The notes beneath the pieces are model-generated. The model was not told where the DNA came from. It saw nothing but the letters and a program-made list of their open reading frames with translations, and made no database searches. Source: Bdellovibrionales bacterium (GTDB lineage Bacteria > Bdellovibrionota > Bdellovibrionia > Bdellovibrionales > UBA1609). From it: a DNA stretch of 64,000 nt. Position 1 is the stretch's first letter, and the number at the start of each line of letters is the position of its first letter. Position numbers and translations under genes: made by a program. This document shows, one piece after another, positions 3 through 38,174 of this stretch. The stretch is from the NCBI GenBank assembly GCA_965205645.1, contig OZ242172.1, positions 704,122 to 768,121 of the forward strand, written 5' to 3'.

Positions 3-1469
3 ATTCGTTTAGCTGAGCGGGGTTTTATTATTTCTGGGGATCATTATGATCGAACAAATAGTAGTAAGAACAAATTTAATAAAGCGGGTCGGAATGTTTT
101 TTTTCATAAGGGGAAATCTTATTTACCGGGTGAACGTTTAAGACAGCCTGGTTTAGCATTAGCATTAAGGCTTTTGAAAAAAGGGAAATCGGTATTTTAT
201 CGGGGTTTGATTGGAAGAGATATTGTTCGGGTTGTGCAAAAACATGGCGGGGTCATGCGCATGGAAGATTTGCACAAGTATCGGGTGCGTTGGCTTGATC
301 CGATCCGGTGGGATTTTGGTGGATATCAGTTTTACAGTATGCCTCTTCCGAGTTCTGGAGGAATTATTTTATTTAGGGCTACTCGTTTAATGGAACAGGT
401 GTTGGCACTTGGTAAACATAATTTGCAAAGTCGTGACATGGGAGCAGCGGAATCGCGGCGCCGCCGAGTCGGCGGGGACACTTTTGGTAAACATAATTTG
501 CAAAGTCGTGACATGCGTGCAAGGAATCGCGGCGCTGTAACCCCCCTTGGGGGGGTGGATGAGTGGCATTTATTAGCGGAGGTATTATCTGCTGCATTTC
601 GTCCGAGAGATCAGATGGGGGATTTGCCGGACGCAACTAAGTTATTAGAGCGTTGGTTATCGGTGAAGGATTTAGATCGTTTAGCTCGGAAAATTTCTTT
701 TCGGCGAATATTAAAATTACCTGCTTTGATCAGTAAACTTGATTTGCACAGTCGTGACATAGATGTACGGAATCGCGGCGCTGTAACCCTCCTTGGGGGG
801 GAGACGACACATTTTTCTATGATGGATGATAAGGGTCAGGTGGTATCTATGACGTTATCTTTGAACAGCAGTTATGGTTCTTATGTTGTGACGAATCGGT
901 ATGGCATTGTTTTGAACAATCAGATGGACGATTTTAATACGCATCCTGGTCGACCGAATCAATTTGGTTTGATTCAGGGTAAGAACAATTTAGTGCGTGC
1001 GCATCGTCGGCCTTTAAGTTCTATGAGTCCTACGATTGTGGAGAAGGATGGACGTGTGGTATTAGCGCTTGGTGCAGCAGGTGGTCCGATGATTATCAGT
1101 GCTGTATTTCAGGTATGTTATCGGTATTTGATTCAGGGTTTAGGTTTAGATCAGGCGGTACAGTTTCCTCGTGTACATCATCAATTTTTACCTCGTGTAT
1201 TGTATGTAGATAAGGATCGTTTTGCACCATTGGTATTAAAGCATTTAAAGAGGCGTGGGCACATTTTAGAGCAGAGGGATTTTATAGGGAGGGTGATGGC
1301 GGTTGGACGGCGGCGCCCTCCAAAAGGGAGTGATGGTGCCGCGATTGCGTCATCCTATGTTACTGTTTTGCAAGATAGTGACAATCGTGCAAGGAATCGC
1401 GTCGAAGTCACCCCCCTCTTGGAGGGGGCTTTTGATGCGCGTGGTGAAGGCGCAGTTGGTGGTTTCTGA
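3..1469 (+). CDS. ggt: gamma-glutamyltransferase, 5' end off-window, carrying three in-frame repeat insertion sites
   Basis: Frame 3 is open from base 3 (IRLAERGFIISGDHYD...) into the listed ORF 174..1469. GGT hallmarks are present: GGETTHFSMMD (nucleophile Thr), NNQMDDF, PLSSMSPT, GAAGGP. Confidence 0.9.
   Translation: MRLAERGFIISGDHYDRTNSSKNKFNKAGRNVFFHKGKSYLPGERLRQPGLALALRLLKKGKSVFYRGLIGRDIVRVVQKHGGVMRMEDLHKYRVRWLDPIRWDFGGYQFYSMPLPSSGGIILFRATRLMEQVLALGKHNLQSRDMGAAESRRRRVGGDTFGKHNLQSRDMRARNRGAVTPLGGVDEWHLLAEVLSAAFRPRDQMGDLPDATKLLERWLSVKDLDRLARKISFRRILKLPALISKLDLHSRDIDVRNRGAVTLLGGETTHFSMMDDKGQVVSMTLSLNSSYGSYVVTNRYGIVLNNQMDDFNTHPGRPNQFGLIQGKNNLVRAHRRPLSSMSPTIVEKDGRVVLALGAAGGPMIISAVFQVCYRYLIQGLGLDQAVQFPRVHHQFLPRVLYVDKDRFAPLVLKHLKRRGHILEQRDFIGRVMAVGRRRPPKGSDGAAIASSYVTVLQDSDNRARNRVEVTPLLEGAFDARGEGAVGGF
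411..557 (+). repeat. Two tandem units of the GC-rich modular hairpin repeat (head GGTAAACATAATTTGCAAAGTCGTGACATG at 411 and 486), inside ggt and in-frame
   Basis: The head is duplicated exactly. Unit 1 ends in the CCGCCG-AGT-CGGCGG hairpin and unit 2 in the CCCCCC-TT-GGGGGGG hairpin. Translated as GKHNLQSRDMGAAESRRRRVGGDTFGKHNLQSRDMRARNRGAVTPLGG. Confidence 0.9.
733..801 (+). repeat. Diverged single unit of the same repeat, in-frame in ggt, ending just before the catalytic Thr codons
   Basis: GTAAACTTGATTTGCACAGTCGTGACAT...GGAATCGCGGCGCTGTAACCCTCCTTGGGGGGG, translated as KLDLHSRDIDVRNRGAVTLLGG and followed by ETTH. Confidence 0.85.
1305..1428 (+). repeat. Composite repeat insertion near the ggt 3' end: an inverted partial unit plus a forward unit
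   Basis: Contains ...GCAAGATAGTGACAATCGTGCAAGGAATCGCGTCGAAGTCACCCCCCTCTTGGAGGGGG. It is preceded by a GC-rich segment with CCCTCCAAAAGGGAG. The insertion is absent from the ggt remnant at 6606..6713. Confidence 0.8.
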
Positions 1470-1648: not shown

Positions 1649-2299
1649 TTAATCAGATAGTTCAAATAAAATAGCATTGAATGTTTGTGTAGTATTATTA
1701 TGCACAGGAATTGTTTTTACTTCTTCTAAGGAGATTATTTTATTTTCAATAGCTATTTTTAATTTTTGTTTTATCCATTCAGGAGGATAAGCACCACTTG
1801 AAATTAAGTTCTGAAAAGTTTTTCTAATATTAGTTATATATAATCCATTTTTCTCTAGTTTTTCTGAAGTATGTAAATTTTCGTAATGCAAAATTAATTG
1901 ATCGTTATTAGCAGTACGCCGGAAATTATCCGGAACAGTAATATGAAGTTTTACTGGACAATCCATTTTAAAATTCATCAAATAAAGTGCAGTTTCATAG
2001 GAAAACGTTCCTACTTGTTCACCGTTACGATTTCTAGCCCAAAGTTGAAAGAGAAAAAAATCTTTTTTTGAATCTGTTTGAATAAAATTAAGTTGATATA
2101 TTCCTCTTTTTACTCGTGACCAGTTTTCTCTTTTTAAATGATAAGAATGATTTCTAGAATCGATACCTGATTCTATTGCCTGTTGGCTAGTGAATAGACC
2201 TGATTGATTCTGAGCAATTTTTAATAAAGGATGATTAACTCTCAAAAATAGTTCCTTATTTGATATAATTATGTATTTTATGTTATATACTATCAACAA
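1649..2299 (-). CDS. AbiEi-like (type IV TA antitoxin-type) DNA-binding domain protein, no AbiEii partner nearby
   Basis: The N-terminal pattern GLFTSQQAIESGIDSRNHSYHLKRENWSRVKRGIYQL resembles the AbiEi_4-type wHTH. Judged by eye only. Confidence 0.45.
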   Translation of the reverse strand: MLIVYNIKYIIISNKELFLRVNHPLLKIAQNQSGLFTSQQAIESGIDSRNHSYHLKRENWSRVKRGIYQLNFIQTDSKKDFFLFQLWARNRNGEQVGTFSYETALYLMNFKMDCPVKLHITVPDNFRRTANNDQLILHYENLHTSEKLEKNGLYITNIRKTFQNLISSGAYPPEWIKQKLKIAIENKIISLEEVKTIPVHNNTTQTFNAILFELSD

Positions 2300-2399
2300 T
2301 AATTATAAAATAACATAATTTTTATGTATTTTATATATTTTTTTCTTGTTTTTTGCAATATATACTGGTAATTTCTATCGAAAAAGAGGGATGTCTATA

Positions 2400-3464
2400 A
2401 TGATAAAAAGCATAAAAATTCAAAATTATAAGCTTTTTAAGTCCTTTGACCTTCAGAATATTCCTCAAATTCTGTTAGTTGGTGGAAAAAATAATAGTGG
2501 AAAAACTAGCATTTTAGAAGCTGCATTTATGTCTTTGGATTGTGTGAATCCCAATATGTTTATCAGGCATCTTGGATGGAGAGGCTTGAATACTATTTCT
2601 AATGATGTAGAATCTTTATTTGGCCCTGTATATCATAATTTTGATTTAAACCAGCCTATAATTATTCAATATACTCTTAATTCAGCACAAAAAAAATTAA
2701 TATACAAGTTTCTGCCATTTGTTACACAACCTATTATCACTCGTAACGGAAGCAGTATTGAAATTAACGAGAAAGTTAGCAGATTTGGGGGGATAGAAAT
2801 TTCTTATTGGCTAGGAAGAGAACAATATCATAAGGCTTTGTTAAAACATGAAATAAAGGGACTTAATTTATCATCTGTGAATCAAGTGCTGAAATACAAT
2901 GAAGGTGTAAAAGCTGTGTTTCTTGCTTCAACTTTTTCAGATCATCAATCGGAAAATGCTCGTAGATATGGCGAGTTGGATAGAATAAATAATACAGCTA
3001 ATATTTTAACTGCATTAAAAATTTTAGAATCCAAACTTAATTCTTTGAGTGTGATACCAATGGGCAATAGATCAATGATATACGGAGATACGGGTCTCGG
3101 AAAAAAAATTCCCTTGGCACTGATGGGTCAAGGGATTAACAAACTTGTATCTATTCTTTTAGCAATTTCCAATGCTAATAATGGAGTTGTTTTTATAGAT
3201 GAGCTTGAAAATGGATTCCATCATTCTGTTCTATCCGATATATGGAAAGTTATTTCACACCATGCTATGTTTAATAATACACAAGTGATAGCTACTACAC
3301 ATAGTAGGGAGCTTATTCTAGGAGCAGTAGCAGGTATACCTGATAGGATTAGAGATAAATTTAAATATATGAGGATAGAAAGAAAAGGAAATGCATTTAA
3401 AACAAAACATTATGATTTTAATACTTTGAGTGCAGCTTTAGATTCTGAGTTAGAAATTCGGTAG
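2400..3464 (+). CDS. ABC/SMC-type AAA ATPase (AAA_15/AAA_21-like, OLD/AriA-like ATPase module)
   Basis: Walker A GGKNNSGKTS, signature-like MGQGINKL, Walker B VVFIDELENGFH, H-loop ATTHS. Start chosen at the ATG at 2400, 10 nt after GAGGG. The longest ORF starts at 2346. Confidence 0.75.
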   Translation: MIKSIKIQNYKLFKSFDLQNIPQILLVGGKNNSGKTSILEAAFMSLDCVNPNMFIRHLGWRGLNTISNDVESLFGPVYHNFDLNQPIIIQYTLNSAQKKLIYKFLPFVTQPIITRNGSSIEINEKVSRFGGIEISYWLGREQYHKALLKHEIKGLNLSSVNQVLKYNEGVKAVFLASTFSDHQSENARRYGELDRINNTANILTALKILESKLNSLSVIPMGNRSMIYGDTGLGKKIPLALMGQGINKLVSILLAISNANNGVVFIDELENGFHHSVLSDIWKVISHHAMFNNTQVIATTHSRELILGAVAGIPDRIRDKFKYMRIERKGNAFKTKHYDFNTLSAALDSELEIR

Positions 3465-3469
3465 ATTTA

Positions 3470-4123
3470 GTGAATCAGAAAAACAGATTTAGCATAAAAA
3501 TTACAGAAACAAAACTCCTTCTTGTAGAAGGAAAGGATGAAGAGTTTTTTTTTAAAACTTTCTTAAAAAAGAAAGAGATTTGTAATATTCAAATTATTTC
3601 TAGTGGTGGAAAAGATAAATTTAAGAACAAATTTCCAGCAATTAAAAACACTCCTGGCTTTGATGAAGTAACTTCATTGGCTGTCATCCATGATGCAGAT
3701 ACAAACGCTCAAGGGGCATTTCAAAGTATTTGTTCTGTATTAAAGAACAATAGCGTGGATTATCCTAAACAAATTTCATCATTTACTACTTCAAATTCCC
3801 TTAGAGTTGGGGTTTTTATTATTCCGGATGGAGGAAATCAAGGAAAGTTAGAATCTTTATGCTTATCTACAGTTGAGTCGGACAGTATTATAGAATGTAT
3901 TGATTCTTTTATGAGTTGTATAAAGCAGCAGTCACAGCTTGATATAAATAGATATAAAGAACCAAAAGATATTCATAAAGCTAGATGTAGGGCATTTCTC
4001 TCAGCTATGGAAGAGGATATTCCATCTTTGGGATTAGCTGCTGAAAAGGGTTATTGGAATTTAGATTCAGATAAATTGAATCCTATGTTGAATTTTTTAC
4101 AGGAATTAAATCGCAAAGAGTAA
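3470..4123 (+). CDS. Small Toprim-like partner protein (DUF4435/DUF3226-like)
   Basis: GTG start 6 nt after the ATPase stop. Contains LLLVEGKDEEFF (conserved Glu) and AVIHDADTN (DxD), the two Toprim acidic motifs, plus IIPDGGNQGKLESL. Confidence 0.55.
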   Translation: MNQKNRFSIKITETKLLLVEGKDEEFFFKTFLKKKEICNIQIISSGGKDKFKNKFPAIKNTPGFDEVTSLAVIHDADTNAQGAFQSICSVLKNNSVDYPKQISSFTTSNSLRVGVFIIPDGGNQGKLESLCLSTVESDSIIECIDSFMSCIKQQSQLDINRYKEPKDIHKARCRAFLSAMEEDIPSLGLAAEKGYWNLDSDKLNPMLNFLQELNRKE

Positions 4124-4148
4124 ATAATATATTAAAAAAAGCACTAAT

Positions 4149-5159
4149 ATGGAAATACCAAAGTTTTTATTATATGGTGAGACTGATCCAAAAACTCAAG
4201 AGAGAATACAGAAAACTCTTCCATGGAGAAGTTGGGATCAAGTCAGTGAAAAGGGAAAAGAAATTGCATTTCAGCAATTGATTAATGAAAATGTATTTCT
4301 ATACAAATCAGATCTTGTAGAAAATACGATAAAACGTTTGAATAATAAATTTTTAAGAAAACTATATGGAAAAAATTTACATTATTGTATGTCAGAATAT
4401 CTTGATGATTATCAAACAGCAGCAATGGGTGATTTTCGTGAAATTTTTACAACAGGAAAATCTGATGTGGTTTTTTATATGTTAAGTATATTTGCTGAAG
4501 GATTTATTAATCAGAATTATTTACGTCAAGCAAAAGAATCAAATAATAATGTAGATAGAAAAGAATATATAGAACAAGCTTTTATTCCATTTAATAAATT
4601 ACAGAACTGTTTGAATCATATTTTTGGACAATTTCATGTCAATCAACAGCTTACTTGGAGTGGTTTTATACCTCGTCAAGATGAAAGAATTTTAGATCAA
4701 ATCTATATTCCTACAATTAAATGTCTTTCCGATCCGAAATGGAGTTTAGTAAATAATGATTTAAGTAATATGTTTCAAGACTATAGAAATGGTAACTATC
4801 GGGACACTATTACTAAAGCTCATAATGTTTTACAAAGATTTCTTCAAATTTTTTTAAACAAGAGAAGTAAAAATGCTAAAGGAGAGTTAGGTAAGTTATT
4901 TTCGGAAGCTAAAAATAAAGGTGTTATATCAAATAATATTTTTATCATGAAAATCATTGAAGGTATTCAGAGCTTTGTATCTTCTGAAAGAGCAACTAAA
5001 AGCACAGCCAAACCTGCATTTAAAAATGTTACATCTGCAGATGCTTTGCTAGTAATGAATGCAGTTATGGTTTTTTTACAATACTGTTTAGAAGCAGATG
5101 CAACTGCATTGAAAGTATCTCCTGCGATTCATAAAGAGAGAGAACGGATGGCCTTTTGA
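4149..5159 (+). CDS. Hypothetical protein, third gene of the ATPase/Toprim cassette. Helical C-terminus with weak HEPN/Abi_C-like flavour.
   Basis: 336-aa ORF 25 nt downstream of the Toprim-like gene. YRDTITKAH fits Rx6H only loosely. Its stop codon (5157..5159) lies inside direct repeat B. Confidence 0.4.
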   Translation: MEIPKFLLYGETDPKTQERIQKTLPWRSWDQVSEKGKEIAFQQLINENVFLYKSDLVENTIKRLNNKFLRKLYGKNLHYCMSEYLDDYQTAAMGDFREIFTTGKSDVVFYMLSIFAEGFINQNYLRQAKESNNNVDRKEYIEQAFIPFNKLQNCLNHIFGQFHVNQQLTWSGFIPRQDERILDQIYIPTIKCLSDPKWSLVNNDLSNMFQDYRNGNYRDTITKAHNVLQRFLQIFLNKRSKNAKGELGKLFSEAKNKGVISNNIFIMKIIEGIQSFVSSERATKSTAKPAFKNVTSADALLVMNAVMVFLQYCLEADATALKVSPAIHKERERMAF

Positions 5160-5195
5160 TGCACGTGGTGAAGGCGCCGTTGGTGGTTTCTGATT
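5152..5195 (+). repeat. Direct repeat B (att-like copy of the ggt 3' end)
   Basis: CCTTTTGATGCACGTGGTGAAGGCGCCGTTGGTGGTTTCTGATT has 3 mismatches to copy A by hand alignment. Confidence 0.85.
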
Positions 5196-5264
5196 GTTTA
5201 TAGTTGTCTATTTAGTATTATTAAAAAATAGATTTGCGGTGGATGTATATTGTACAAACAGAAA

Positions 5265-6413
5265 TTACTTGATATTTTTCAGCCAGTCAGCAGCTGGCCA
5301 GATATGACATCCTGAGGTATGTAGCCTTTGTCGGCTACAAGATCTAACTAGCTGTATTTTTTTTACAGGATCAGGTATATCTTTAGTAAATAAATCAAAA
5401 TGAGATGTGAGTTTTTCATCTTTCCATTTAGTCTCTATCATTTGAAATGGCTTATTGTCTTTTGTGATTAAGAAATCTATTTCTTTTTTATCTTTATTTT
5501 TTAAGTAATAAAGTTGTCTTTTTTCTCCATAGCAGTCTTCTTTAAAGTGGTTATTTTTTAGTAAGGCGCAGGCAACAAGGTTTTCGAATCGCGCGCCTTT
5601 ATCTGAAACTTGAGCTATATCGTAAAAATAATACTTAGGCTGTTTGCGGATAGATTTTCTGATGTTTTTATAATAGGGTTGGATTTTAAAAATAAAATAA
5701 AATCCTTCTAATAGGTTCAGCATTTTTTTCACTGTTTTACCATCGCATTGTAGGATTTTTGATAAATTTTCGTATTGAATAGCGCTACCAACGGATGTTT
5801 TTAGTAACTCTAATAAGGTTTCTAATTGAGAAATTCTTTGGTATTTATCTAGCTCCAGCATATCTTCTTTTAGAATGGCTGAAGTGTGCGTGTTTGCCCA
5901 TCTTCTATAAAACTGCTTTGATCCTTTAAGATATGGTTCTGGAAATCCTCCAATTTCTAGCAGTCGGGTGAGTATTTGCTCTGGGTCTGCTTTTTTATGT
6001 ATTTGGCAAATTTCTTTTACGTCTAAAGGATGTAGGCGAAAAGGGAAAAAGCAGCCAGCTAAGGAATCTCCTGTTCTTTTATAGGCTTCAAGTCTGGCGC
6101 TACCTGTTACTATAATACCTTGTTTAAGTTCTGTTTTTTCATATAAAGCTTTTAGCCATTGTTTCCAGTTTTTTTTAATATGTAGTTCATCAAAAACTAG
6201 GTACTTGCAATAAGGATTCCATTCTTGTCGTTCTACCATTAGGCGGTCTTTGGCATCAAAGTAGTTAAAATAATCAAATTTTACTGAGGATGGGTGTAGG
6301 TGTTTTGAAAGCATTGTTTTTCCGGATTGTCGAGGACCGGTTATAATTAAAATCTTTTCTTTTAAATCTTTTTTTAAAAAGGGCTCTAGGTAGCGAGGTT
6401 TGTATTTGTTCAT
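5265..6413 (-). CDS. AAA ATPase of the AAA_14/DUF4143 type
   Basis: Walker A ITGPRQSGKTML and Walker B-like YLVFDELH. A C-terminal EIDFLI...IETKW module is typical of DUF4143 proteins. Paralog at 41867..43030. Confidence 0.75.
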   Translation of the reverse strand: MNKYKPRYLEPFLKKDLKEKILIITGPRQSGKTMLSKHLHPSSVKFDYFNYFDAKDRLMVERQEWNPYCKYLVFDELHIKKNWKQWLKALYEKTELKQGIIVTGSARLEAYKRTGDSLAGCFFPFRLHPLDVKEICQIHKKADPEQILTRLLEIGGFPEPYLKGSKQFYRRWANTHTSAILKEDMLELDKYQRISQLETLLELLKTSVGSAIQYENLSKILQCDGKTVKKMLNLLEGFYFIFKIQPYYKNIRKSIRKQPKYYFYDIAQVSDKGARFENLVACALLKNNHFKEDCYGEKRQLYYLKNKDKKEIDFLITKDNKPFQMIETKWKDEKLTSHFDLFTKDIPDPVKKIQLVRSCSRQRLHTSGCHIWPAADWLKNIK

Positions 6414-6605: not shown

Positions 6606-6713
6606 CAGAGCGGATTAGAGAATACTCTGGGAATAAGGTTTAGTTTGCATGTGGTGGCAATTTTAGAAGGGGCTTTTGATGCGCGTGGTGAGGGTGCAGT
6701 CAGTAGTTTATAA
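6606..6713 (+). pseudogene. ggt: Displaced, diverged 3' remnant of ggt without the repeat
   Basis: Reads ...LHVVAILEGAFDARGEGAVSSL* in frame. The live gene has ...GRVMAV[38-aa repeat insert]LEGAFDARGEGAVGGF*. There is no upstream ORF. Confidence 0.65.
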
Positions 6714-6715
6714 TT
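6672..6715 (+). repeat. Direct repeat C (att-like)
   Basis: The first 20 nt are identical to copy A. There are 7 mismatches in the remaining 24 by hand alignment. Confidence 0.8.
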
Positions 6716-6725
6716 GGATAAAGTG

Positions 6726-8003: not shown

Positions 8004-8139
8004 AATAAATATATTATCGGTGGATTAATGCAAAGTGTTTAAGAAAACAAGCTAGACTTTTAGATAGTTTTTAGTTGGATTCAGCGAGCAGATTTTTTTA
8101 ATTGCATTGAAACAAACTACTTTTTTATTCTTAAAGAAA

Positions 8140-8505
8140 TTAATGTTTTGTAGATGTTTTTGTTTCAATTGTTTTAAGGCGAGCGGCTCGTCCTTTTTGT
8201 TTTCTTAAGTAAAAAAGCCGTGCTCTGCGTATTTTTGCTTTAGATACTAGCACGACTTTCTCTAAAGCAGGGCTAGCCAGCGGAAATGTACGTTCCACGC
8301 CTACTCCACCAGATATTTTGCGCACTGTGATGGATCGCGAGGATTTTTTCCCTTGAATTTTTAATACAACACCGCTGAATACTTGCACGCGTTCCTTGCT
8401 GCCTTCCCGAAGACGTATGTGGGCATCCACTGTATCTCCAACTTGTGCTGAGTAATCTTGTTTTTTCTTAGATTGATCCAGCGTGAATTTTTCTACGATA
8501 TCCAT
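8140..8505 (-). CDS. rplS: 50S ribosomal protein L19
   Basis: VGDTVDAHIRLREGSKERVQVFSGVVLKIQGKKSSRSITVRKISGGVGVERTFPLASP is canonical L19. Confidence 0.95.
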   Translation of the reverse strand: MDIVEKFTLDQSKKKQDYSAQVGDTVDAHIRLREGSKERVQVFSGVVLKIQGKKSSRSITVRKISGGVGVERTFPLASPALEKVVLVSKAKIRRARLFYLRKQKGRAARLKTIETKTSTKH

Positions 8506-8550
8506 GGCACTTTCCTTATCTATAACTTGTGTACTTTCGTTTAGGTAATA

Positions 8551-8880
8551 TTATTTTAGATGTTGTTTATTTTTATGTATTTGATCTAAATGACGATCTA
8601 ATTGATTTATTTTGTGAATATTAGCATGGGAGGGGTAGGTATACGTTCTTTCTTGTAGTATCTTGTTTTCTATTGCTTCTTCGGTTGAAAAATTGTTGTT
8701 TAATTCTTTCATCCGCTGCGAGTGAATTGGATAATCGAGTGTGTTTTGTTTGTGTATAGCATTATGAACAGCTATTGGATTCAGGAAGGCCATTGAACAC
8801 TTTATATTTGTCAAAGAATTGCTGTAAGCGTAAGATGAAAATAATAATAATAATATATAAAATATCCAAATTTTTAACAT
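8551..8880 (-). CDS. Small secreted protein, family member 1 of 4 between rplS and trmD
   Basis: Signal peptide MLKIWIFYILLLLFSSYAYS. Shares YTYPSHANIHKINQLDRHLDQI with the other members. Confidence 0.6.
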   Translation of the reverse strand: MLKIWIFYILLLLFSSYAYSNSLTNIKCSMAFLNPIAVHNAIHKQNTLDYPIHSQRMKELNNNFSTEEAIENKILQERTYTYPSHANIHKINQLDRHLDQIHKNKQHLK

Positions 8881-9159
8881 AACAATTCCTTTTACTTCAG
8901 AACATTTTTCTTAATAATATCAGATGTTTAAATCCTTAAACCCAAGTAGGTATTAAGTTAAGTGAGGATATTTATCATACGAGTTGTCTTTATGCAACTT
9001 TAAAAAAGGGGTGGTGTAAATATTTACATTGCCAGTGTAAAAAAACAGCTATTTGCCTGGAAGCTCACGTTACTTAAGTACACATGATTGGCAAAATTAT
9101 GACATGGGAGTAGCAGATTCATAGCGCAGTTATTGATATCGTCTATCATTAGTTGTGTA

Positions 9160-9717
9160 TTATTTCATGTAATATTCTTTATATGAATTCATTTGTTGGT
9201 CTAAATGATCGATTTGTTTTTGCAATTTTTGAGATACAAAGAGTGCATGTTCATAGATTGTCTCTTCTAATTTCATTTTTAATTGTGCAATATGAATCAG
9301 CTGATTCAGCTTTGCATTGTATTTTGTGTGTGCAATAAATATTATCTTCGACGTTTCGTTTAATAGCTTCGGATTTTCTGCATGTTCTGTCACATTCTCT
9401 TCCAGCTGCTGGTCATGTTTCTGTTTATCTAGATAAGGCACAATGAGTTCTGTATGAAGAAGATCATTTACTTGATCTATTACATTGGAATATTGTTGAT
9501 TAGTTTCATCTACTTTTTTTGATAATTGTTTTAAGTCTATACCAGCTTCTTCTAGTGGTGTTCTATCTATGCCTTTAAAAGAAAATCGGCATTTTGTCCA
9601 AGAATTGCTATATGCATTCTGTGAAAGTAACAATGCACAAAATATTCCTATTATAGCTATGCTCAAACTCTCACAGCTATAATAGATAGAATGATAACAG
9701 TTTTTCCTACTCTGCAT
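9160..9717 (-). CDS. Secreted coiled-coil-like protein, family member 2
   Basis: Its N-terminus MQSRKNCYHSIYYS... is identical to the 9874 ORF, followed by a signal peptide. Confidence 0.6.
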   Translation of the reverse strand: MQSRKNCYHSIYYSCESLSIAIIGIFCALLLSQNAYSNSWTKCRFSFKGIDRTPLEEAGIDLKQLSKKVDETNQQYSNVIDQVNDLLHTELIVPYLDKQKHDQQLEENVTEHAENPKLLNETSKIIFIAHTKYNAKLNQLIHIAQLKMKLEETIYEHALFVSQKLQKQIDHLDQQMNSYKEYYMK

Positions 9718-9835
9718 GACATTCTCTTTAACAATTAGAGATTCTTTTCATTCATTCAAGCGATCGTACATCACTGAATGGGTACTCTCTTATCATAAGT
9801 GGCATAGTTGTGCAAATTTAAAGAGAGATTAATGT
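9655..9835 (-). repeat. Conserved leader plus 5' CDS segment of the paralog cassette (copy 1)
   Basis: About 180 bp are nearly identical to 10303..10488. The segment includes TTATCATAAGTGGCATAGTTGTGCAAATTTAAAGAGAGATT. Confidence 0.8.
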
Positions 9836-9873
9836 TTTGACTATAATGTTCTTATATTTTTTTTGAAGTTGTT

Positions 9874-10365
9874 TCATCTGTTAAATAGAATCCATAAGTT
9901 ATTTTGATGGATGTGGTTTAAGGTGTTAATTAGTTGTCTTGTTTGTTCGTTGTCTTTTCGATTTGATCTTTTCAGTTCCTGTAGTATGCTTCTTTTCATA
10001 GTTTCTCCTTCAGCTATTATTTGATCCAGTTTGTGATCCCATGGATTTATTTGTTCAGCGTTACTAGGGTATGTAGATTTTAATTTCTGTAGCAGATATG
10101 TTATTTTGTTTCTAAGGACGATAGATCTATCGTGAATGTGTTCTATATTTATTGGCTTTTGTGGTGTGTGAGATGGTTGGATTGCACTCTCTTTTGTTTC
10201 ATCGGTAGGCGCTGGATTGTCAAATGATTGTTGGCATTTATTTTCAGAAGTACCGTAAGTAGGGTGCGCAAATAACAATGCACAAAATATTCCTATTATA
10301 GTCGTTATGCTGAAAATCCTATAGCTATAATAGATAGAATGATAACAGTTTTTCCTACTCTGCAT
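9874..10365 (-). CDS. Secreted protein, family member 3
   Basis: STYPSNAEQINPWDHKLDQIIAEGETMKRSILQELKR...NNLWILFNR parallels the 10543 ORF. Confidence 0.6.
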   Translation of the reverse strand: MQSRKNCYHSIYYSYRIFSITTIIGIFCALLFAHPTYGTSENKCQQSFDNPAPTDETKESAIQPSHTPQKPINIEHIHDRSIVLRNKITYLLQKLKSTYPSNAEQINPWDHKLDQIIAEGETMKRSILQELKRSNRKDNEQTRQLINTLNHIHQNNLWILFNR

Positions 10366-10488
10366 GATGTTCTCTTTAACAATTAGAGATTCTTTTCACT
10401 CATTCATTCAAGCAATCGTGCATCGCTGAATGGGTACTCTCTTATCATAAGTAGCATAGTTGTGCAAATTTAAAGAGAGATTCATGTT
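10303..10488 (-). repeat. Conserved leader plus 5' CDS segment of the paralog cassette (copy 2)
   Basis: See 9655..9835. Degenerate versions of the TTATCATA..TGCAA core are also upstream of the 8551 and 10543 ORFs. Confidence 0.8.
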
Positions 10489-10542
10489 TTTTCTATGACT
10501 CTGAAGAATAAATCAATCTTCTGTTTTTCTTTTTTTGTATAG

Positions 10543-11055
10543 TTACTCAGATGGATTTTTCTTTGATAAGTTAATTTGTTGATCCTGGTATCCTTCCATG
10601 GATACTTTTAACCTGTTAGATAGAATCCATAAGTTATTTTGGTTGATATAATTAAAAATGTAATTTAATTTTACTGTTTGTTGGTTGTTATTTACATTTA
10701 TTCTTTTCAATTCTTGTATTATTGTGGTCATCTGTGTTTTTCCTTCAGCTATTATCTGATGAAGCTTATGATCTAATTGCTCTATTTTTTTAACGTCATT
10801 AGGATGTGTAGATTGTAATTTTTGTAGCAGATGTTCCGCTTCTTCCTTAAGAGCGGCAGATCGGATACTATATTGTTCTATGTTTATTGGCTGTTGCGCC
10901 GTGTGTTCAGTTTGGGCTGCACCTTTTTTTGTTTCATTACTGATAGGTGCTGAATTATTAAATGGTTGCTTGCATTTGTCTCCGGTAAAACCACCAGAAT
11001 CACCGTAAGCAGGATACGCAAATAGCAATACACAAAATATCCATATTATAGTCAT
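10543..11055 (-). CDS. Secreted protein, family member 4
   Basis: Signal peptide MTIIWIFCVLLFAYPAYG. Contains STHPNDVKKIEQLDHKLHQIIAEGKTQMTTIIQELKR...NNLWILSNR. Confidence 0.6.
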   Translation of the reverse strand: MTIIWIFCVLLFAYPAYGDSGGFTGDKCKQPFNNSAPISNETKKGAAQTEHTAQQPINIEQYSIRSAALKEEAEHLLQKLQSTHPNDVKKIEQLDHKLHQIIAEGKTQMTTIIQELKRINVNNNQQTVKLNYIFNYINQNNLWILSNRLKVSMEGYQDQQINLSKKNPSE

Positions 11056-11352
11056 TAGTATTTCCTTTTAAAGATAGTTTTTCTTCCACCGAGACGGTGG
11101 AGCTAGATTGCCATACGGTACTTATCATAAGCTATATAGCTATGCAACCCTGCAACCCTACAAAATAGTTTTTACATTTTATTTGACTGGCTATAAAGAG
11201 ATTAACATAAAAAGAAAATTTTCCTAATACAATGTTAATTTCATCAGTAAAGGCATTTAAATCATTGGTTTATTTGTGTTTGTTAGATTTAAAAAGATTT
11301 TTTAAATATTTTGTCTGAAATTGAGTCATTATCAAGCTGTTTAGCAACTGTC

Positions 11353-12183
11353 TCAATTCTTGGTTAATTTCTTGCCTTTGTCACTGGAAATCCGTTGCAA
11401 GTCAGCACGGCAAAGGCCACAGGCGATTAACTCTTCATCCAATAGCTTTTGCGCATAACTAAGCGCTGCCGGTACCTCTCGCTTAGCAGGACTAGCTACT
11501 AATAAATCTGGTCTTTTTAGTGCGGTTAATAAGACAGATATAAAGTAATGAAATTCTTTAATGTTTTGATGGTGACCGGAAAATAATATTTTTGGTATAC
11601 AATGTCCCTTAATTTCTCTGGGACGGGTCCACTGAGGACATTCTAATAAGCCATGATCTTCAAAGCTTTCATTAGTAGCGGAATATTCATTTCCTAAAGC
11701 TCCTTTAATGAACCGGCAAAGAGAATCTAATATCAATAAAGCAGCTGGTTCCCCTCCAGTGAGTACATAATCTCCCACAGAAATTTCTTCATCCACGAGT
11801 TCTTCAATCACTCGTTGATCGACTCCACCATAGCGTCCGCAAATGATAATACGTTCTTTTTGTTCCTGCTCCGCCCACTGTCTTGCCATTTCATAATTCC
11901 ATTGCTTCCCTTTTGGACTTAAATAATACACTGTTCTTTTTTTTGGTGCTGATTCAATTGCTTGTTTCAAAGGTTCATACTGAAGTACCATTCCATCTCC
12001 ACCACCAAAGGGACTATCATCCACACTCTGATGAATGTTTGTTGCAAAATTTCTAAGTGGAATTAAATTTACTTTTAATAAATTGCGCTGAATAGATCGG
12101 CCTAATATCCCAACATTCAAAGGAGAGTTAAAAAATTCTGGAAAAAGAGTAACGATATGAAATTTTAACATCACACAAACCAT
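11353..12183 (-). CDS. trmD: tRNA (guanine37-N1)-methyltransferase
   Basis: MLKFHIVTLFPEFF, GGGDGMVL, RYGGVDQRV, VLTGGEPAALLILDS. The true start may be the MLKF Met at 12171. Confidence 0.93.
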   Translation of the reverse strand: MVCVMLKFHIVTLFPEFFNSPLNVGILGRSIQRNLLKVNLIPLRNFATNIHQSVDDSPFGGGDGMVLQYEPLKQAIESAPKKRTVYYLSPKGKQWNYEMARQWAEQEQKERIIICGRYGGVDQRVIEELVDEEISVGDYVLTGGEPAALLILDSLCRFIKGALGNEYSATNESFEDHGLLECPQWTRPREIKGHCIPKILFSGHHQNIKEFHYFISVLLTALKRPDLLVASPAKREVPAALSYAQKLLDEELIACGLCRADLQRISSDKGKKLTKN

Positions 12184-16483: not shown

Positions 16484-16990
16484 CAACCCCCCCCTCAAAA
16501 GGGGTAACTTCGCCGCGATTCCTTGCACGCATGTCACAATTTTGCTTATAAAGTTCGTCAAGTAAGTAAGTGTCCGCCCCCCAAAGGGGGTAACTTCGCC
16601 GCGATTCCTTGCACGCATGTCACAATTTTGCTTATAAAGTTCGTCAAGTAAGTAAGTGTCCGCCCCCCAAAGGGGGTAACTTCGCCGCGATTCCTTGCAC
16701 GCATGTCACAATTTTGCTTATAAAGTTCGTCAAGTAAGTAAGTGTCCGCCCCCAAAGGGGGTAACTTCGCCGCGATTCCTTGCACGCATGTCACAATTTT
16801 TCACATAAAGTTTGCCAAGTAAGTAAGTGTCCGCCCCCCAAAGGGGGTAACTTCGCCGCGATTCCTTGCACGCATGTCACAATTTTTCACATAAAGTTTG
16901 CCAAGTAAGTAAGTGTCCGCCCCCCAAAGGGGGTAACTTCGCCGCGATTCTGCTGTACGCATGTCACTCCTTGTAAATCATGTTTATCAG
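16484..16990 (-). repeat. Tandem array of 6 units of the hairpin repeat, period 86 bp (one unit is 85 bp), co-oriented with secG
   Basis: The TGTCCGCC landmark falls at 16571, 16657, 16743, 16828 and 16914. Monomer: GTCCGCCCCCCAAAGGGGGTAACTTCGCCGCGATTCCTTGCACGCATGTCACAATTTTGCTTATAAAGTTCGTCAAGTAAGTAAGT. The last two units switch to a TTTTTCACATAAAGTTTGCCAAG linker. Confidence 0.92.
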
Positions 16991-17151
16991 TTGTCTGCGG
17001 CGACCTCGCCATGCTCTGCGGCAAAATGCATATCTGAGCTTTTGAGTGAATTTTTTAAATGGGAAAACAAATATTTACACTGTTGCAAATTATGCTTGTA
17101 AATATCCGATTGTATGTTGAGTTTTGGAATAGCTTATTATTAAATAAGGCA

Positions 17152-18297: not shown

Positions 18298-19284
18298 ATG
18301 AAAGTGTTAGTAACAGGAGCAACCGGTTTCTTAGGTGGATGGCTGTGTAAAGCTTTGGTGAAAGAAGGGCACTCCGTGCACGCTTTAGTACGCCCTTCCA
18401 GTAATACTAGTGAATTGCAAAAACTGTCTGTTCATTTACATAAAGGGGATGTGACAGATCTTCATTCTTTCATGTCTGCCGCCAGTGGTGGGGTAGAAGT
18501 GTTATTTCATTTAGCAGGGTTGGTGGCTTATGCAGAAAGGCTGCGTTCAGCAATGCAGGCAGTAAATGTAGGAGGGACAGCTAATGCTATTGAAGTGTGT
18601 CGCCAACGAAATATTCGTTTAGTTTACATGAGTTCCGTTGCTGCTGTCGGAGCTAGTCTTACCTCGAAAGTGCTAAATGAAGAATCTCCTTATGAAATGG
18701 ACAAATTTCGTTTCGGGTATTTTGATACAAAAAGGAAAGCAGAAATATTAGTACGACAAGCTTGCCAAAAAGGTGATCTATTTGCAGTTATTTTAAATCC
18801 TTCTAATGTTTATGGTGCAGGGGATATGCGCAAAGCTAGTCGACGGACACATATCTGGGTCGCAACAGGTAGTCTTCCATTTTATACTTCCGGTGGACTC
18901 AGTGTGGTGAACGTGGAATCTGTTATTGAAACCACGATACAAGCTGTGCAAAAAGGCCGGTCTGGAGAAAGATATATTCTCAGTGGTGAAAATATTAGTA
19001 TTCAAAAATTGTTTCAATTGGTAGCGAAAGCTGCCGGTAGTCACCCTCCCTCTATTCGTATGAGTAATTTTGTTTTAGATTCACTCGTGCTGGTTGGCCA
19101 AGGATTAAAAGCGATGGGGTTCCGCTTTTTTTTAAATGATAAAGATATGCGATTAGGTCGATTTTATCACTGGTTTGATCATAGTAAAGCTAGTGCAGAA
19201 CTGGATTTTTCTCCGCAGCCAGCTGCTTACGCTATTTCTAATTCCATTGAGTGGTGGAAAAAACACTGCCAATCAAAAACATAA
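18298..19284 (+). CDS. NAD-dependent epimerase/dehydratase family (extended SDR)
   Basis: MKVLVTGATGFLGGWL and YFDTKRKAE (YxxxK). Confidence 0.8.
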   Translation: MKVLVTGATGFLGGWLCKALVKEGHSVHALVRPSSNTSELQKLSVHLHKGDVTDLHSFMSAASGGVEVLFHLAGLVAYAERLRSAMQAVNVGGTANAIEVCRQRNIRLVYMSSVAAVGASLTSKVLNEESPYEMDKFRFGYFDTKRKAEILVRQACQKGDLFAVILNPSNVYGAGDMRKASRRTHIWVATGSLPFYTSGGLSVVNVESVIETTIQAVQKGRSGERYILSGENISIQKLFQLVAKAAGSHPPSIRMSNFVLDSLVLVGQGLKAMGFRFFLNDKDMRLGRFYHWFDHSKASAELDFSPQPAAYAISNSIEWWKKHCQSKT

Positions 19285-19373
19285 AGTAGGAAGGTAGTAA
19301 CATGAGTGCAGGGACTCGCGGCGAAAGTAACCCCCTATGGGGGCGCGGCGCTGTATCCCCCCCGATTTGGGGG
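19285..19373 (+). repeat. Partial forward repeat unit spanning the argS start codon
   Basis: GTAACATGAGTGCAGGGACTCGCGGCGAAAGTAACCCCCTATGGGGGCGCGGCGCTGTATCCCCCCCGATTTGGGGG compares with the canonical GTGACATGGGAGCAGCGGACTCGCGGCGAAA... Confidence 0.8.
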
Positions 19374-21143
19374 TTGGATCAGTTTACCAGTATTGTATGT
19401 CGCGATTTATCTCGTACCATTCATAAATTATTTCAATTGGATCTGGCAGAAAATCAAATAGCTCAGTACTTTAGTGCTCCTCCACAGGAGGACTGGGGAC
19501 ATTGGGCTTTGCCTTGTTTCTTTCTTGCAAACAAACAAAAAAAAATAAACCCCGCTGCAGCTTCTGCACAAATTGCAAACGCTTATCAAGTTCCCTCTAC
19601 TATATTTGAGCGAGTTGTCGCAAAAGGTCCTTATGTAAATTTTTTTTTTCAACCAGCTTTTTTATGTCAAAAGCTACTGAATCCCATCCGTTCCGGAGAG
19701 TTATTTCAATTGCCACCTAAAAAAAATAATCCATGGTTGGTGGAATACTCACAACCTAATACACATAAGGAATTACATATCGGCCACTTAAGAAATTTAT
19801 GTTTCGGTTTAGCTTTAACCACTTTATTAAAAAAACGAGGCTTTTCAGTCATTAGCTGTACTTTTCCTGGGGATACGGGCACACATACTGCGAAATGCTT
19901 ATGGTATTTGAAATACCATAATAAAGAAAAACCTCCTGATGAAACACATCCTCCTTTTGTGCGCAAAGGGGCATGGTTAGGATATATTTATACAAAAGCT
20001 TGCTTAAAATTTGAGGAAGCTGTCAAAGAGGCGGACTCTGCTCCGATCGTTCAAAAACAAGTGACGGATATTTTGAAACAACTACAGTCCAAACAAGGTG
20101 ATATTTATGAGCTATGGAAAGAAACACGCGAATGGAGCTGTGATTTAATGAAACAAGTGTACGAGTGGGTAGGAGTGCAATTTGACAAATGGTATTGGGA
20201 ATCAGAAGTGGATGAACCTTCCGTTCAGTTGATTAAAGATCTTTATCAAAAAAAACAACTCACTAAATCTGAATCAGCTATTGGTAAAGACTTAGGTTCA
20301 AAATTGGGATTTTGTTTGCTATTAAAATCAGACGGTAATGGATTATACGCTACTAAAGATATTTATCTAGCTAAAAAAAAGATGGAAGATTATCACCCGG
20401 AAAAAAATATTTATATCGTGGACCAAAGACAAGAGCGACACTTCCAACAAGTGTTCGCTGTATTAGATCATATTGGTTGTTCAGAAATTGCCAGCCGATC
20501 TAAACATTTAAAATATAACTTTGTACAACTACCTTCTGGTCCTATGAGCTCTAGAGACGGAAATATCGTTCCTATTATGGACATAATCCAAAAAATGACA
20601 GCTTATGTGAAAAAACAGTTTTTACAAAAATATGAGAATAACTGGGATAAAGATCAACAAGAACAAGTAGCTCGTCAAGTTGCTGAAGGAGCTATTAAAT
20701 ATGGAATGAATGAGCAGGATTTAAACAAAAAAATTATTTTTAATATGCAGGAATGGCTCAATTGGGATGGTAAATCAGGGCCGTATATTCAGTATGCATA
20801 CGCCAGATCTTGCTCTCTTTTAAAGAAATTCAATGCGGATAATCAGACGATTCAATACAAAGAACCAACTGCGTTTTCACCGGAAGAACAGTCAATTATT
20901 GTGCACCTTTCTCGTTTCTCTCTCATAATGGAAAATAGCGCCTGGCAAATGAAAACCGCACCCGTTTGCCATTATTTATTCGATCTGGCTAAACAGTTTT
21001 CCCGCTTCTATCAAAATTGCCCCATCGGTAGTTTAAAAGATCAAGAGAAGAAAAATTTTCGCCTGTTTCTCGTGCAGGTCGTTCAATCAGCCCTGAAAGA
21101 AGGACTATCCTACCTGTCCATTCCCACCCCTGAAAAAATGTAA
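19302..21143 (+). CDS. argS: Arginine--tRNA ligase. The first ~24 codons are repeat-derived.
   Basis: HIGHLRN class-I motif, PMSSRDGNIV, and a DALR-like C-terminus. The ATG at 19302 is the ATG carried by the repeat. An alternative in-frame TTG lies at 19374. Confidence 0.9.
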   Translation: MSAGTRGESNPLWGRGAVSPPIWGLDQFTSIVCRDLSRTIHKLFQLDLAENQIAQYFSAPPQEDWGHWALPCFFLANKQKKINPAAASAQIANAYQVPSTIFERVVAKGPYVNFFFQPAFLCQKLLNPIRSGELFQLPPKKNNPWLVEYSQPNTHKELHIGHLRNLCFGLALTTLLKKRGFSVISCTFPGDTGTHTAKCLWYLKYHNKEKPPDETHPPFVRKGAWLGYIYTKACLKFEEAVKEADSAPIVQKQVTDILKQLQSKQGDIYELWKETREWSCDLMKQVYEWVGVQFDKWYWESEVDEPSVQLIKDLYQKKQLTKSESAIGKDLGSKLGFCLLLKSDGNGLYATKDIYLAKKKMEDYHPEKNIYIVDQRQERHFQQVFAVLDHIGCSEIASRSKHLKYNFVQLPSGPMSSRDGNIVPIMDIIQKMTAYVKKQFLQKYENNWDKDQQEQVARQVAEGAIKYGMNEQDLNKKIIFNMQEWLNWDGKSGPYIQYAYARSCSLLKKFNADNQTIQYKEPTAFSPEEQSIIVHLSRFSLIMENSAWQMKTAPVCHYLFDLAKQFSRFYQNCPIGSLKDQEKKNFRLFLVQVVQSALKEGLSYLSIPTPEKM

Positions 21144-21475
21144 CCCCCCTCAAAGGGGGAGTGATTTCGCCGCGATTCCTTGCATCCATGTCACTATTTT
21201 ATACATTATGTTCGCCAAATAACCCCCTCTGGGGGCGCCGCCCGCGAGTCGCGGGGGATACTTTCGCCGCGGCTGTATTTACGTTATTGTCACTATCTTG
21301 CACATTATGTTCGCCAAGTAAGTGTCCATGGCGACTCGTTTGAGCTTTTAAACAAGGTTTTTAAACTTAAGAGATTCACAAAATAAGCGCCAGAGCGAAC
21401 ATCTGCGGCGCAGTATTCATGGCGATCCGCCACTGGTAACCTGCTACTGCATTTACATTATTGTCACGATTTTAA
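21143..21475 (-). repeat. Cluster of about 3 inverted-orientation repeat units downstream of argS
   Basis: CCCCCCTCAAAGGGGGAGTGATTTCGCCGCGATTCCTTGCATCCATGTCACTATTTTATACATTATGTT..., then CCCCCTCTGGGGG and CCCGCGAGTCGCGGG hairpins, then a degenerate unit ending ATTATTGTCACGATTTT. Confidence 0.85.
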
Positions 21476-21531
21476 AAAAATTTATAACATTATTATTAAT
21501 TTTAGTCCCCAAATATCCGAAAGTTATATTT

Positions 21532-33656: not shown

Positions 33657-34040
33657 GATTTCAGCTCGTCATTATGTTTAAGTGATAGTATTTACTGATA
33701 TACATTCACTTTGTAAAGGTAGTTATTTCAGTATTAACGAAAATAAGCTATTACTCTTGATCGTATCTTTTATTGTTGAGGTATTTTACTGTCAATATAT
33801 ATTAAATATTTTCTAAAAATAGCTATGTAATTTTTACAATATAGATCCTAACTGCGGGAACAGCTGTCATTATTACGATAGGTGTTGGATCCTCAGGGGA
33901 TGTAAAGCCAAAAATCTTAATGGAATACAAGATCTTGATATGGAGTGCACAGTCGAAAGTCTTACTTGTTGTGATAATACTCTAATTTTTATTTATCTTT
34001 TATTTTTTTTGGTATGTAATAAATTAAGACAATAAAAGCA

Positions 34041-34340
34041 ATGCGGAGAAAATATAAAATGCAATATATAAAAAAAATCATTATCTGTTGTTGTGTATTG
34101 CTTCTATCACCTCTGGCTTTCGGTGTTATTTCAGATGTACATATTACGGGCTTTATTGTGAAATATAACAAGGACACAGTTCAGTTGCAGCAAAGAGGCA
34201 ATCGCACAATCACTGTACCAAGAAGTGCTATTCCCAAGGATTTTCCATTAAAGACAGGAAGAGAGGTAACAGTTGTTATCAGTGGCAAAGAATTTATGAA
34301 AAGAATAAATCAAAAACAAGTAGCAGCAAAAAAAGAAACA
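34041..34340 (+). repeat. 300-bp near-identical duplicate (2 mismatches) of 35579..35878
   Basis: Hand alignment at an offset of 1538 bp. The differences are at 34045 (G/A) and about 34168 (A/G, giving Asn/Asp). Confidence 0.9.
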
Positions 34341-34388
34341 AAACAGATCCATAAGCATAAAAAGAGCAAATCAGACACCAGCAAATAA
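34041..34388 (+). CDS. Small secreted protein with a Lys-rich tail (family A, copy 1)
   Basis: Signal peptide IICCCVLLLSPLAFG. Near-identical to the 35579 ORF over the first 100 codons. Confidence 0.65.
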   Translation: MRRKYKMQYIKKIIICCCVLLLSPLAFGVISDVHITGFIVKYNKDTVQLQQRGNRTITVPRSAIPKDFPLKTGREVTVVISGKEFMKRINQKQVAAKKETKQIHKHKKSKSDTSK

Positions 34389-34525
34389 TTTCTGATAAGA
34401 AATATATGATGTACATCATAGTTATGAATCTGATGTTTGGAATTTAAAAATATTAATGGTAGCAGCTAGATTAAAAAACTGAGGATATAGAGTAAGAAAA
34501 GGCAAAGAAGCGAAAAGGAAATATT

Positions 34526-38152: not shown

Positions 38153-38174
38153 ATGTTCAGTCAAAAATTTAGAA

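Follow-up and report, generated by a model that had tools for sequence, protein, structure and literature searches.

In-frame GC-rich hairpin repeats in ggt and other genes of a Bdellovibrio-related bacterium

The stretch of DNA analyzed here (the window; 64,000 nucleotides of contig OZ242172.1 from a Bdellovibrionales bacterium) begins inside ggt, the gene for gamma-glutamyltranspeptidase (GGT), whose open reading frame (ORF) continues through three GC-rich blocks, numbered 1 to 3 from the 5' end. The question raised by this locus is what these blocks are and how a gene can take them in without losing its frame. The window carries a family of small GC-rich hairpin repeats in an AT-rich, small, Bdellovibrio-related genome, in which essential genes such as ggt and ybeY contain it. 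We conclude that the blocks probably represent a selfish, lineage-specific, non-autonomous family of modular hairpin repeats that resembles the Rickettsia palindromic elements (RPEs), is filtered by selection within genes and is remodelled by recombination. The family is previously undescribed, as it matches no described family in the collections and full text searched.

The 3' part of ggt occupies positions 3–1469 of the plus strand (488 codons). It was identified by Pfam family PF01019 (E = 3e-90) and by alignment with the Escherichia coli GGT 2e0w (E = 5e-59), and it is 100% identical to the 723-aa protein P0001. Of the 120 best GGT homologs, nearly all have a length of 540–600 aa, and this GGT is about 30% longer than its homologs. 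Alignments with 11 and then with 61 homologs (47–60% identity) revealed four extra segments present in P0001 alone. The original prediction that a repeat had entered ggt in frame at three sites, as lineage-specific insertions, is thus confirmed, and a fourth site was found upstream of the window.

The four insert sites, all on the plus strand, differ in composition. Site 1, at residues ~120–176 of P0001, was located from the homolog alignment. Site 2 (block 1) contains two units with a head-to-head period of 75 nt: (i) unit a (400–483), formed by a linker, a head, the middle variant M' (GGAGCAGCGGAATCGCGGCG) and the hairpin Q (CCGCCGAGTCGGCGG), with the peptide LGKHNLQSRDMGAAESRRRRVGGDTF, and (ii) unit b (484–557; 73 bits), formed by a head, the middle variant M (CGTGCAAGGAATCGCGGCG) and the hairpin P (CCCCCC-TT-GGGGGG), with the peptide GKHNLQSRDMRARNRGAVTPLGGV. 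The linker GGCACTTG is a part of the unit, and block 1 therefore starts near 400 and not at 411 as initially proposed; otherwise, the three blocks lie where they had been placed. Site 3 (block 2; 731–803) is a single unit with a head, a middle box and a hairpin P in the C-terminal tail of the large subunit. It stops one codon ahead of the catalytic Thr (codon 804–806), and the element's last G also starts the Glu codon located immediately before this Thr. Site 4 (block 3; 1305–1428) is a palindromic inverted dimer matched by the family profile on both strands, in which a minus-strand partial unit (1315–1374) is fused head to head with a forward unit (1363–1428). Its terminal inverted arms lie at 1313–1328 and 1414–1429, and as RNA it folds into a 124-nt palindrome (-62.4 kcal/mol, z = -4.39). 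The whole-block folds of blocks 1 and 2 are no better than those of shuffled sequences (z = -0.39), and these blocks have no inverted ends. Thus, the description of the blocks as simple modular forward units sharing one element frame holds for blocks 1 and 2, whereas block 3 has a degenerate head and is read in the shared frame in its second half only.

The enzyme itself appears well preserved. The catalytic Thr, the NNQMDDF and PLSSMSPT motifs and the GG oxyanion motif are intact, as had been noted before, and their columns are invariant in the 62-sequence alignment including P0001. In comparison with the E. coli GGT, site 2 falls into the loop after the helix ending in ILENF, and site 4 into the C-terminal hairpin before AFDARGEG. 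An AlphaFold2 model built from the 62-sequence alignment has a mean predicted local distance difference test (pLDDT) score of 82.7, with most of the core above 90 and four segments below 50 (residues 120–168, 405–411, 479–500 and 678–686). The proposed mapping of the inserts on a GGT structure thus placed them in low-confidence loops on a confident core. The inserts fit exposed, flexible loops on a confidently folded core in this model, and the insert loops are probably floppy or disordered.

A separate observation concerns the 3' end of ggt. The last ~45 nt of the gene are present three times (1426–1476, 5150–5200 and 6670–6720), and two low-GC islands lie between these copies (genes 1649–6413). 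The first island, also found in contig L001 of a relative, encodes an AbiEi-like regulator, an AAA_15/AAA_21 ATPase, a DUF3226/OLD-type TOPRIM protein and an exonuclease-like ORF; the second encodes an AAA_14/DUF4143 ATPase. The arrangement resembles a series of defence or mobile islands lined up at an attachment site within the 3' end of ggt; an integrase was not observed.

Assembly or chimera errors, or a ggt that is a decaying pseudogene, could in principle produce such blocks. We give this explanation practically no weight, and it is largely refuted already. The same 90% protein cluster contains a 784-aa GGT with the same four inserts from the independent metagenome assembly ERZ25067264. 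This assembly yielded contigs L001, L015, L017 and L019, which are ~97% identical to the window where syntenic. The family is also present in four other samples, represented by independent assemblies (contigs L016, L018 and L020 come from samples other than ERZ25067264), and so is no assembly artefact. A decaying gene is contradicted by the intact catalytic residues and by the pattern of substitutions. Nucleotide divergence from the 97% relative is 3.9% in the inserts and 3.2% in the ggt host part, and the ratio of nonsynonymous to synonymous codon changes is 8:2 and 13:16, respectively (Fisher p = 0.07), which suggests that the host gene is under purifying selection and that the insert peptides are close to neutral. 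What speaks for errors is found in the relatives' contigs, which are of low coverage and contain frameshifts. The split murF (L001 5479–7468) is a frameshift or read-through error of a 2–5x-coverage assembly and no biological feature, and the fused fusA ORF for a 975-aa EF-G (L017 13559–16486) was rejected as an insert carrier, being a read-through fusion on a 2x-coverage contig.

The repeats were next sought over the whole window. The sequence AATCGCGGCG with at most one mismatch occurs 18 times against 1.15 expected, a count reached in none of 100 shuffles, and the 18-nt head with at most three mismatches occurs nine times against 0.07 expected. A profile of the nhmmer type, made from hand-picked units and used to scan both strands, recovered 27 full or partial units. 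The family sums to 2,144 nt (3.35% of the window) at 10 loci, about half of them intragenic, in agreement with the predicted recurrence of about 2 kb at 16.5, 19.3, 21.2 and 55.3–57.8 kb. Its GC content is 0.47–0.58, with the exception of one decayed copy (0.40); the window has 0.36 and the ggt host part 0.42.

The units share a common order: an AT-rich head is followed by a middle box ending in CGCGGCG and by one to three GC hairpins. The head reads TTGGTAAACATAATTTGCAAAGTCGTGACA, or (TTGG)TAAACATAATTTGCAAAGTCGTGACA with the preceding bases. The middle box ends in (A/C)TCGCGGCG and has three length variants, all with the terminal CGCGGCG: M (TGCGTGCAAGGAAT-), M' (TGGGAGCAGCGGAAT-) and M2 (ATAGCGCAAATGGAGC-). 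M' is one nucleotide longer than M, and the downstream peptide is therefore shifted from NRG... to ESRR.... Hairpin P consists of GT(A/T/G)AC or (C/T)CAC followed by C5-loop-G5, and hairpin Q of CCGCCG-AGT-CGGCGG followed by GGACACTT, which links it to the next head. A stem of at least five pairs directly after the CGCGGCG box was observed in 56 of 59 units from eight sources. These stems occur in complementary variants, at least six for P (CCCCC/GGGGG, CTCCC/GGGAG, CCCTC/GAGGG, CCCAC/GTGGG, CACCC/GGGTG, CCACC/GGTGG and CCGCG/CGCGG) and five for Q (including CGCCG/CGGCG, TGGCG/CGCCA and CGGCG/CGCCG), and the hairpins are thus preserved by compensatory change.

In the relatives, the units are joined to a second module, L, a ~120-nt palindrome with an RNA fold of -36 to -56 kcal/mol. 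Its center is conserved, its outer arms vary among copies and are complementary within each copy, and double compensatory changes affect 14 of 49 pairs among four copies. Copies of L were located at L001 6527–6647 and 10376–10493, L017 1965–2085 (minus strand) and 16851–16970, L019 14906–15022, and L018 8125–8241. The module is in frame within murF, gcvP and the relative's ggt, and in L018 and nnr it precedes the arrays or is interleaved with the units; the window holds half-copies of L only. In two relatives, a (TATCGTTC)n microsatellite lies 20–50 nt upstream of L (L018 4902–4957 and 8013–8110; L019 14779–14858); absent from the window, it may be a further module of a composite element.

Outside ggt, the family occurs in the window in the following contexts. 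A decayed, AT-enriched copy (9078–9132, plus strand; 17.7 bits) sits among minus-strand genes. The secG/bioB intergenic region contains a tandem array of six units (16487–16989, minus strand; period 85–86 nt, which is no multiple of 3) with the left half of an L palindrome at its 5' end (17012–17070, minus strand; 43.5 bits, model positions 2–60). A unit with two hairpins lies at the start of argS (19278–19375, plus strand), and two units together with a degenerate unit and L remnants lie 3' of this gene (21144–21480, minus strand), antisense to both neighbors, with a weak L half-copy near 21337–21366. Upstream of murJ, two units with extra hairpins (55260–55524, plus strand) are followed by a third unit (55516–55625, plus strand), which is open and in phase with the murJ frame. 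The murJ-ybeY spacer contains two 103-nt units and an extra hairpin (57228–57440, plus strand), and ybeY itself contains an insert (57688–57805, plus strand). The proposal that all copies except the argS 3' cluster are co-directional with the host or downstream gene stands for the loci that it listed, but the decayed copy at 9078–9132 is also antisense to its neighbors.

Three of these loci suggest further hosts in the window. The in-frame insert in ybeY, formed by a head, the middle variant M2 and three P hairpins, adds ~40 residues that separate TDILSFSF from ILGELV; in all solved YbeY structures, these two stretches directly adjoin each other. The insert follows the TD(I/V)LSF strand and comes before the strand ahead of the catalytic His motif, and the HGxLHLxGxxH motif is intact despite the insert. 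The argS ORF is opened in phase by the ATG (19302) of the repeat's own GACATG box, and its first ~24 codons (19302–19375) are repeat-encoded and stand in for the N-terminus of the relatives L020 and L022. Judging from the sequence, the repeat may supply the start codon of this essential gene, and the unit at 55516–55625 is a possible N-terminal extension of murJ.

The family is not confined to the window, as further in-frame hosts were identified in close relatives: a murF-like gene (two sites), a gene for a 475-aa hypothetical protein, gcvP (two sites), nnr/yjeF, a xerC/D-like gene (two or three sites) and a TPR-like gene. Its phylogenetic range appears narrow. When 1.84 billion representatives were searched exhaustively by phmmer with the 53-aa peptide of ggt, only 10 proteins were retrieved, all of them insert-bearing, which suggests a rare family restricted to one clade; a word-indexed peptide search found two proteins only and missed ggt itself. 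The nearest named relatives are metagenome-assembled genomes labelled Oligoflexia or Bdellovibrionales, and Bdellovibrio bacteriovorus (ArgRS 47–48% identical). On the 84%-identical syntenic contig L020 from a sponge metagenome, the family is present at the secG/bioB and argS 3' spacers on the same strand, and at the argS start as an AT-decayed remnant only. In the 72–80% relative L022, no family copies were found in 21.8 kb. These two comparisons give an indication of the age of the family.

Comparison of the intragenic copies revealed a strict rule. All 25 intragenic units recognized by a simple pattern in the window and in the relatives are in the sense orientation to the host gene, with the GAC of GTGACA in phase 0. 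These units represent at least 12 independent sites, orthologous copies not being counted twice, and P0126 and P0127 are further in-frame examples beyond this count. Among the coding pieces, only the inverted half of ggt block 3 runs in reverse. The frame used, KHNLQSRD...RNRGAVTPLGG, is Cys-free, ends in Gly/Pro and is among the most hydrophilic (grand average of hydropathy -0.8 to -1.35). The two commonest unit types are free of stops in four or five of the six frames and the M2 type in two of them, and no frame other than the used one is open in all three types. If stop-freedom alone counted, the chance of a single frame at 12 sites would be, by our own arithmetic, about (1/4)^11; stop codons alone do not account for the single frame. 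The unit periods within genes are 72, 75 or 99 nt, and all intragenic arrays lack stops, keep the phase and have lengths divisible by 3. The intergenic periods (85–86, 93, 99, 101–103 and 135 nt) are not all multiples of 3. We infer that the frame rule is a result of selection.

That all 25 units, in many unrelated proteins, use one frame could also mean that the encoded peptide is functional, i.e. a domesticated basic flexible linker or tag for localization, proteolysis or partner binding, which would explain both the frame and the orientation; the peptide motif KH(N/D)LQSRD...RNRG is indeed still recognizable in diverged relatives. We regard this explanation as very unlikely for several reasons: (i) nonsynonymous changes dominate in the inserts, unlike in the host part of ggt; (ii) modules with different peptides are swapped at one site, in ybeY; (iii) the frame shift within the unit gives two unrelated tails, NRGAVTPLGG and ESRRRRVGGD; (iv) the same DNA also builds non-coding arrays with periods that are no multiple of 3; and (v) the number of units at ggt site 1 varies between strains.

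Alternatively, the inserts might never reach the protein, owing to intron-like removal from RNA or to translational bypassing. Some AT-rich mitochondrial genes have GC-rich insertions that are bypassed in translation, and the sense orientation of all intragenic units and their stable hairpins would suit such a process. However, an insert that is removed requires no open frame and no length divisible by 3, yet all intragenic arrays have both. Moreover, strain differences compensate each other to keep the frame, and no ribozyme or intron family was matched. We therefore consider this explanation exceedingly improbable.

Comparison with the 97% relative shows that the repeats differ between strains. 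At ggt site 1, the two strains differ by 73 aa, the relative having an additional head, L module and unit. The murJ-ybeY spacer contains two units in the window and four in the relative. In the relative's ybeY, M2 is swapped for another middle variant (-2 nt) and one P hairpin is added (+20 nt), the net difference of +18 nt keeping the frame. Within a stretch of 16 nt in ggt site 3 (753–768), six substitutions turn one middle variant into the consensus variant, and these clustered changes look like gene conversion. The only ggt indel relative to this strain is of 3 nt within a hairpin, and every intragenic difference keeps the reading frame. Upstream of murJ, the 265 nt at 55260–55524 are present in the window and absent from L015, where the head of the remaining unit is truncated. 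No target-site duplication was found at the boundaries of this presence/absence difference, and given the truncated head as well, loss from the relative is no less likely than gain in the window.

As all strain differences are gains or losses of units or swaps of modules, the repeats might not be transposable at all and might spread solely via host recombination (templated repair, gene conversion, slippage or microhomology-mediated template switching) with no dedicated enzyme. This is consistent with the lack of terminal inverted repeats and target-site duplications on the units, and with the finding of no transposase in the window. On the other hand, recombination alone would hardly seed genes as unrelated as ggt, ybeY, gcvP, nnr and xer, since the junctions share no evident homology, and the conserved boxes and covarying stems look like recognition features. 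This alternative, which we judge unlikely, also overlaps with the array-remodelling step of the preferred explanation, a selfish repeat family filtered by selection, rather than replacing it.

To relate the family to known elements, we searched collections and literature and looked for features of mobility. The family went unrecognized in the original prediction, and the searches agree with this. With Rfam at the gathering threshold, only 23S and 5S rRNA passed over the whole window; nothing was found at E <= 1 over 55200–57900, and module L gave sub-threshold chance matches only. No family match was found in plasmid and phage collections. The pattern GTGACATGN{7,8}GGAMTCGCGGCG had no match in viral contigs; its two matches in genome representatives (which do not include the source genome) and 11 in JGI metagenomes span a 25-nt region only, without head or hairpin, and were thus rejected as chance. 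The motif and peptide strings were not found in a full-text literature search.

Terminal inverted repeats of 15–30 bp, the criterion for a miniature inverted-repeat transposable element (MITE), are absent from the head-middle-hairpin units, long complementary arms being confined to module L and ggt block 3. Target-site duplications were seen neither at the 55260–55524 boundary nor at the solo L copy in L019, the only two informative cases. The MITE model was rejected on these two grounds. No consensus of insertion sites was found at the junctions. The CGTC tag was not found at unit ends, where GT(A/T/G)AC or (C/T)CAC precede the stems instead, and neither the GTAG nor the CGTC tag of repetitive extragenic palindromic (REP) elements, imperfect palindromes of 20–40 nt, was found, though hairpins are present in 56 of 59 units. 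None of the scanned window ORFs of at least 120 aa is a gene for an IS200/IS605-type Y1 transposase of the RAYT family. A promoter or terminator role was also rejected, because neither a sigma-70-like nor an intrinsic-terminator-like consensus exceeds the chance level in the units, with the last hairpin of the 16.5-kb array as the sole exception. In L018, a gene of the PF04754 family (Transposase_31, PD-(D/E)XK type; 10225–11043) lies between the arrays at 8125–8735 and 11135–11405; on this one observation, it is a candidate for the mobilizing activity.

Taken as a selfish repeat family, these elements would behave as follows. Copies would land in intergenic as well as coding DNA. The conserved stems and short flanking boxes, in the absence of terminal inverted repeats and target duplications, point to a hairpin- or recombination-dependent route, and the spread would depend on hairpins or recombination. 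As the strain comparison shows, arrays then gain and lose units and exchange modules through recombination or gene conversion among the copies. Within genes, selection would keep those sense copies that are read in the stop-free, Cys-free, hydrophilic, Gly/Pro-ended frame, have a total length that is a multiple of 3 and lie in a surface loop or at a terminus. The outcome would be working genes with translated, probably disordered extra loops, and no benefit to the host is required. A bolder version attributes the strict sense orientation, the single phase and the copy-specific complementary arms not to selection alone but to a new propagation mechanism, in which a hairpin-guided element, possibly transcription-coupled or self-templating and possibly driven by a PF04754-type nuclease, writes frame-compatible linker peptides into genes; we consider this version quite doubtful.

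Several points weigh against the selfish-family explanation. The strain differences include no new insertion with clean polarity, the 265-nt indel being equally well a deletion in the relative, and no mobilizing enzyme or transposase was found among the scanned window ORFs. That the inserts are translated we infer from frame conservation only, and the low pLDDT of the ggt inserts is partly due to empty alignment columns. The contrast between inserts and host part in the ratio of nonsynonymous to synonymous changes is weak (p = 0.07), and some relative contigs have 1–5x coverage with frameshift errors. The family census covers the 64-kb window of the 1.56-Mb source genome and the relatives' contigs.

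Other features of the window were observed as well. The 23S and 5S rRNA genes lie at 38174–41394, with no 16S rRNA or tRNA gene in the 64 kb, and the rRNA operon appears split. A ~1.54-kb tandem duplication at 33972–36982, including 300 nt at 99% identity, contains two paralogous ORFs (305 and 301 aa) that matched no Pfam family. Repeats of ~650 nt at 9160–11055 contain three paralogous minus-strand ORFs (185, 163 and 170 aa), also with no Pfam match. A 611-aa protein encoded at 31821–33656 (minus strand) consists almost entirely of eukaryote-type leucine-rich repeats (LRR_8), which fits a host-associated lifestyle, the close relative L020 coming from a sponge metagenome.

The family offers a natural system for studying how proteins tolerate or gain loops, e.g. 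beside the GGT autoprocessing site or at the argS start, how selection filters mobile DNA by reading frame, and how hairpin repeats without inverted ends move. Such elements also inflate protein lengths, create spurious ORFs and break low-coverage assemblies, and annotators need a model of them. No new principle is involved unless the propagation mechanism proves unusual.

The parallels that were initially drawn to RPEs, for in-frame insertion at exposed positions, and to pneumococcal BOX elements, for modularity, are apt as analogies. BOX elements (boxA-boxB(n)-boxC) are modular and non-autonomous, with a variable number of internal modules; they are intergenic, Streptococcus-specific and have terminal inverted similarity. 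Mycobacterial MIRU/VNTR loci are intergenic tandem repeats whose copy number varies among strains, and in yeast mitochondria palindromic GC clusters invade an AT-rich genome including a coding gene. The MIRU loci and yeast GC clusters have unrelated sequences and hosts and serve as analogies only. The likeness to BOX, supported by a review of MITEs (PMC10969869), lies in the modular principle only. Unlike the intergenic BOX elements, about half of the present window loci are intragenic.

REP elements and the related BIMEs and REPINs, which RAYT tyrosine transposases mobilize, are also short GC hairpins that follow a short conserved box (here GT(A/T/G)AC or (C/T)CAC), with compensatory stem evolution and clustering in arrays, and some REPs occur within genes (PMC3733652). 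The present family differs in having no GTAG/CGTC tag and in carrying its hairpins within a longer unit with an AT-rich head. REP-type arrays alternate, whereas the present arrays are direct, and no RAYT was seen in the available sequence. QMITE1 of the intracellular Coxiella burnetii is a small non-autonomous element of 300–400 bp that overlaps annotated ORFs, encodes basic peptides, and has inverted ends and 2–3-nt direct repeats (PMC5896051); the present units have neither inverted ends nor direct repeats.

The closest likeness is to RPEs, which form in-frame, solvent-exposed segments in unrelated housekeeping proteins of Rickettsia (PMC10969869, PMC3767692, PMC3733652). Both the present family and RPE-1 to RPE-10, together with the Wolbachia palindromic elements, are small repeats in an AT-rich reduced genome, many of them residing in ORFs without a frame break. 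They share in-frame insertion at exposed positions of functional ORFs, exposure being deduced here from the alignment and the AlphaFold model. In size, ggt block 3 and module L are similar ~120-nt palindromes, and the RPE criterion of a 100–150-bp whole-length palindrome fits these two but not ggt blocks 1 and 2. The differences are as follows. The host belongs to another phylum, and no homology to RPEs could be shown; for a Bdellovibrio-related host, sequence membership in the RPE families is unlikely. RPEs are single 100–150-bp palindromes, whereas the present elements are mostly direct modular tandem units read in one frame throughout. RPEs have a CGTC tetranucleotide tag at one end (PMC3733652), which the present units lack. 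The positions of RPEs are reported to be conserved across Rickettsia species (PMC3767692), whereas copy number and modules vary here between 97%-identical strains. To our knowledge, good documentation of selfish repeats that enter working genes in frame is essentially limited to Rickettsia and Wolbachia, whose insertions are old and static. The present family represents a second, independent case in another phylum, in which the process still appears to run.

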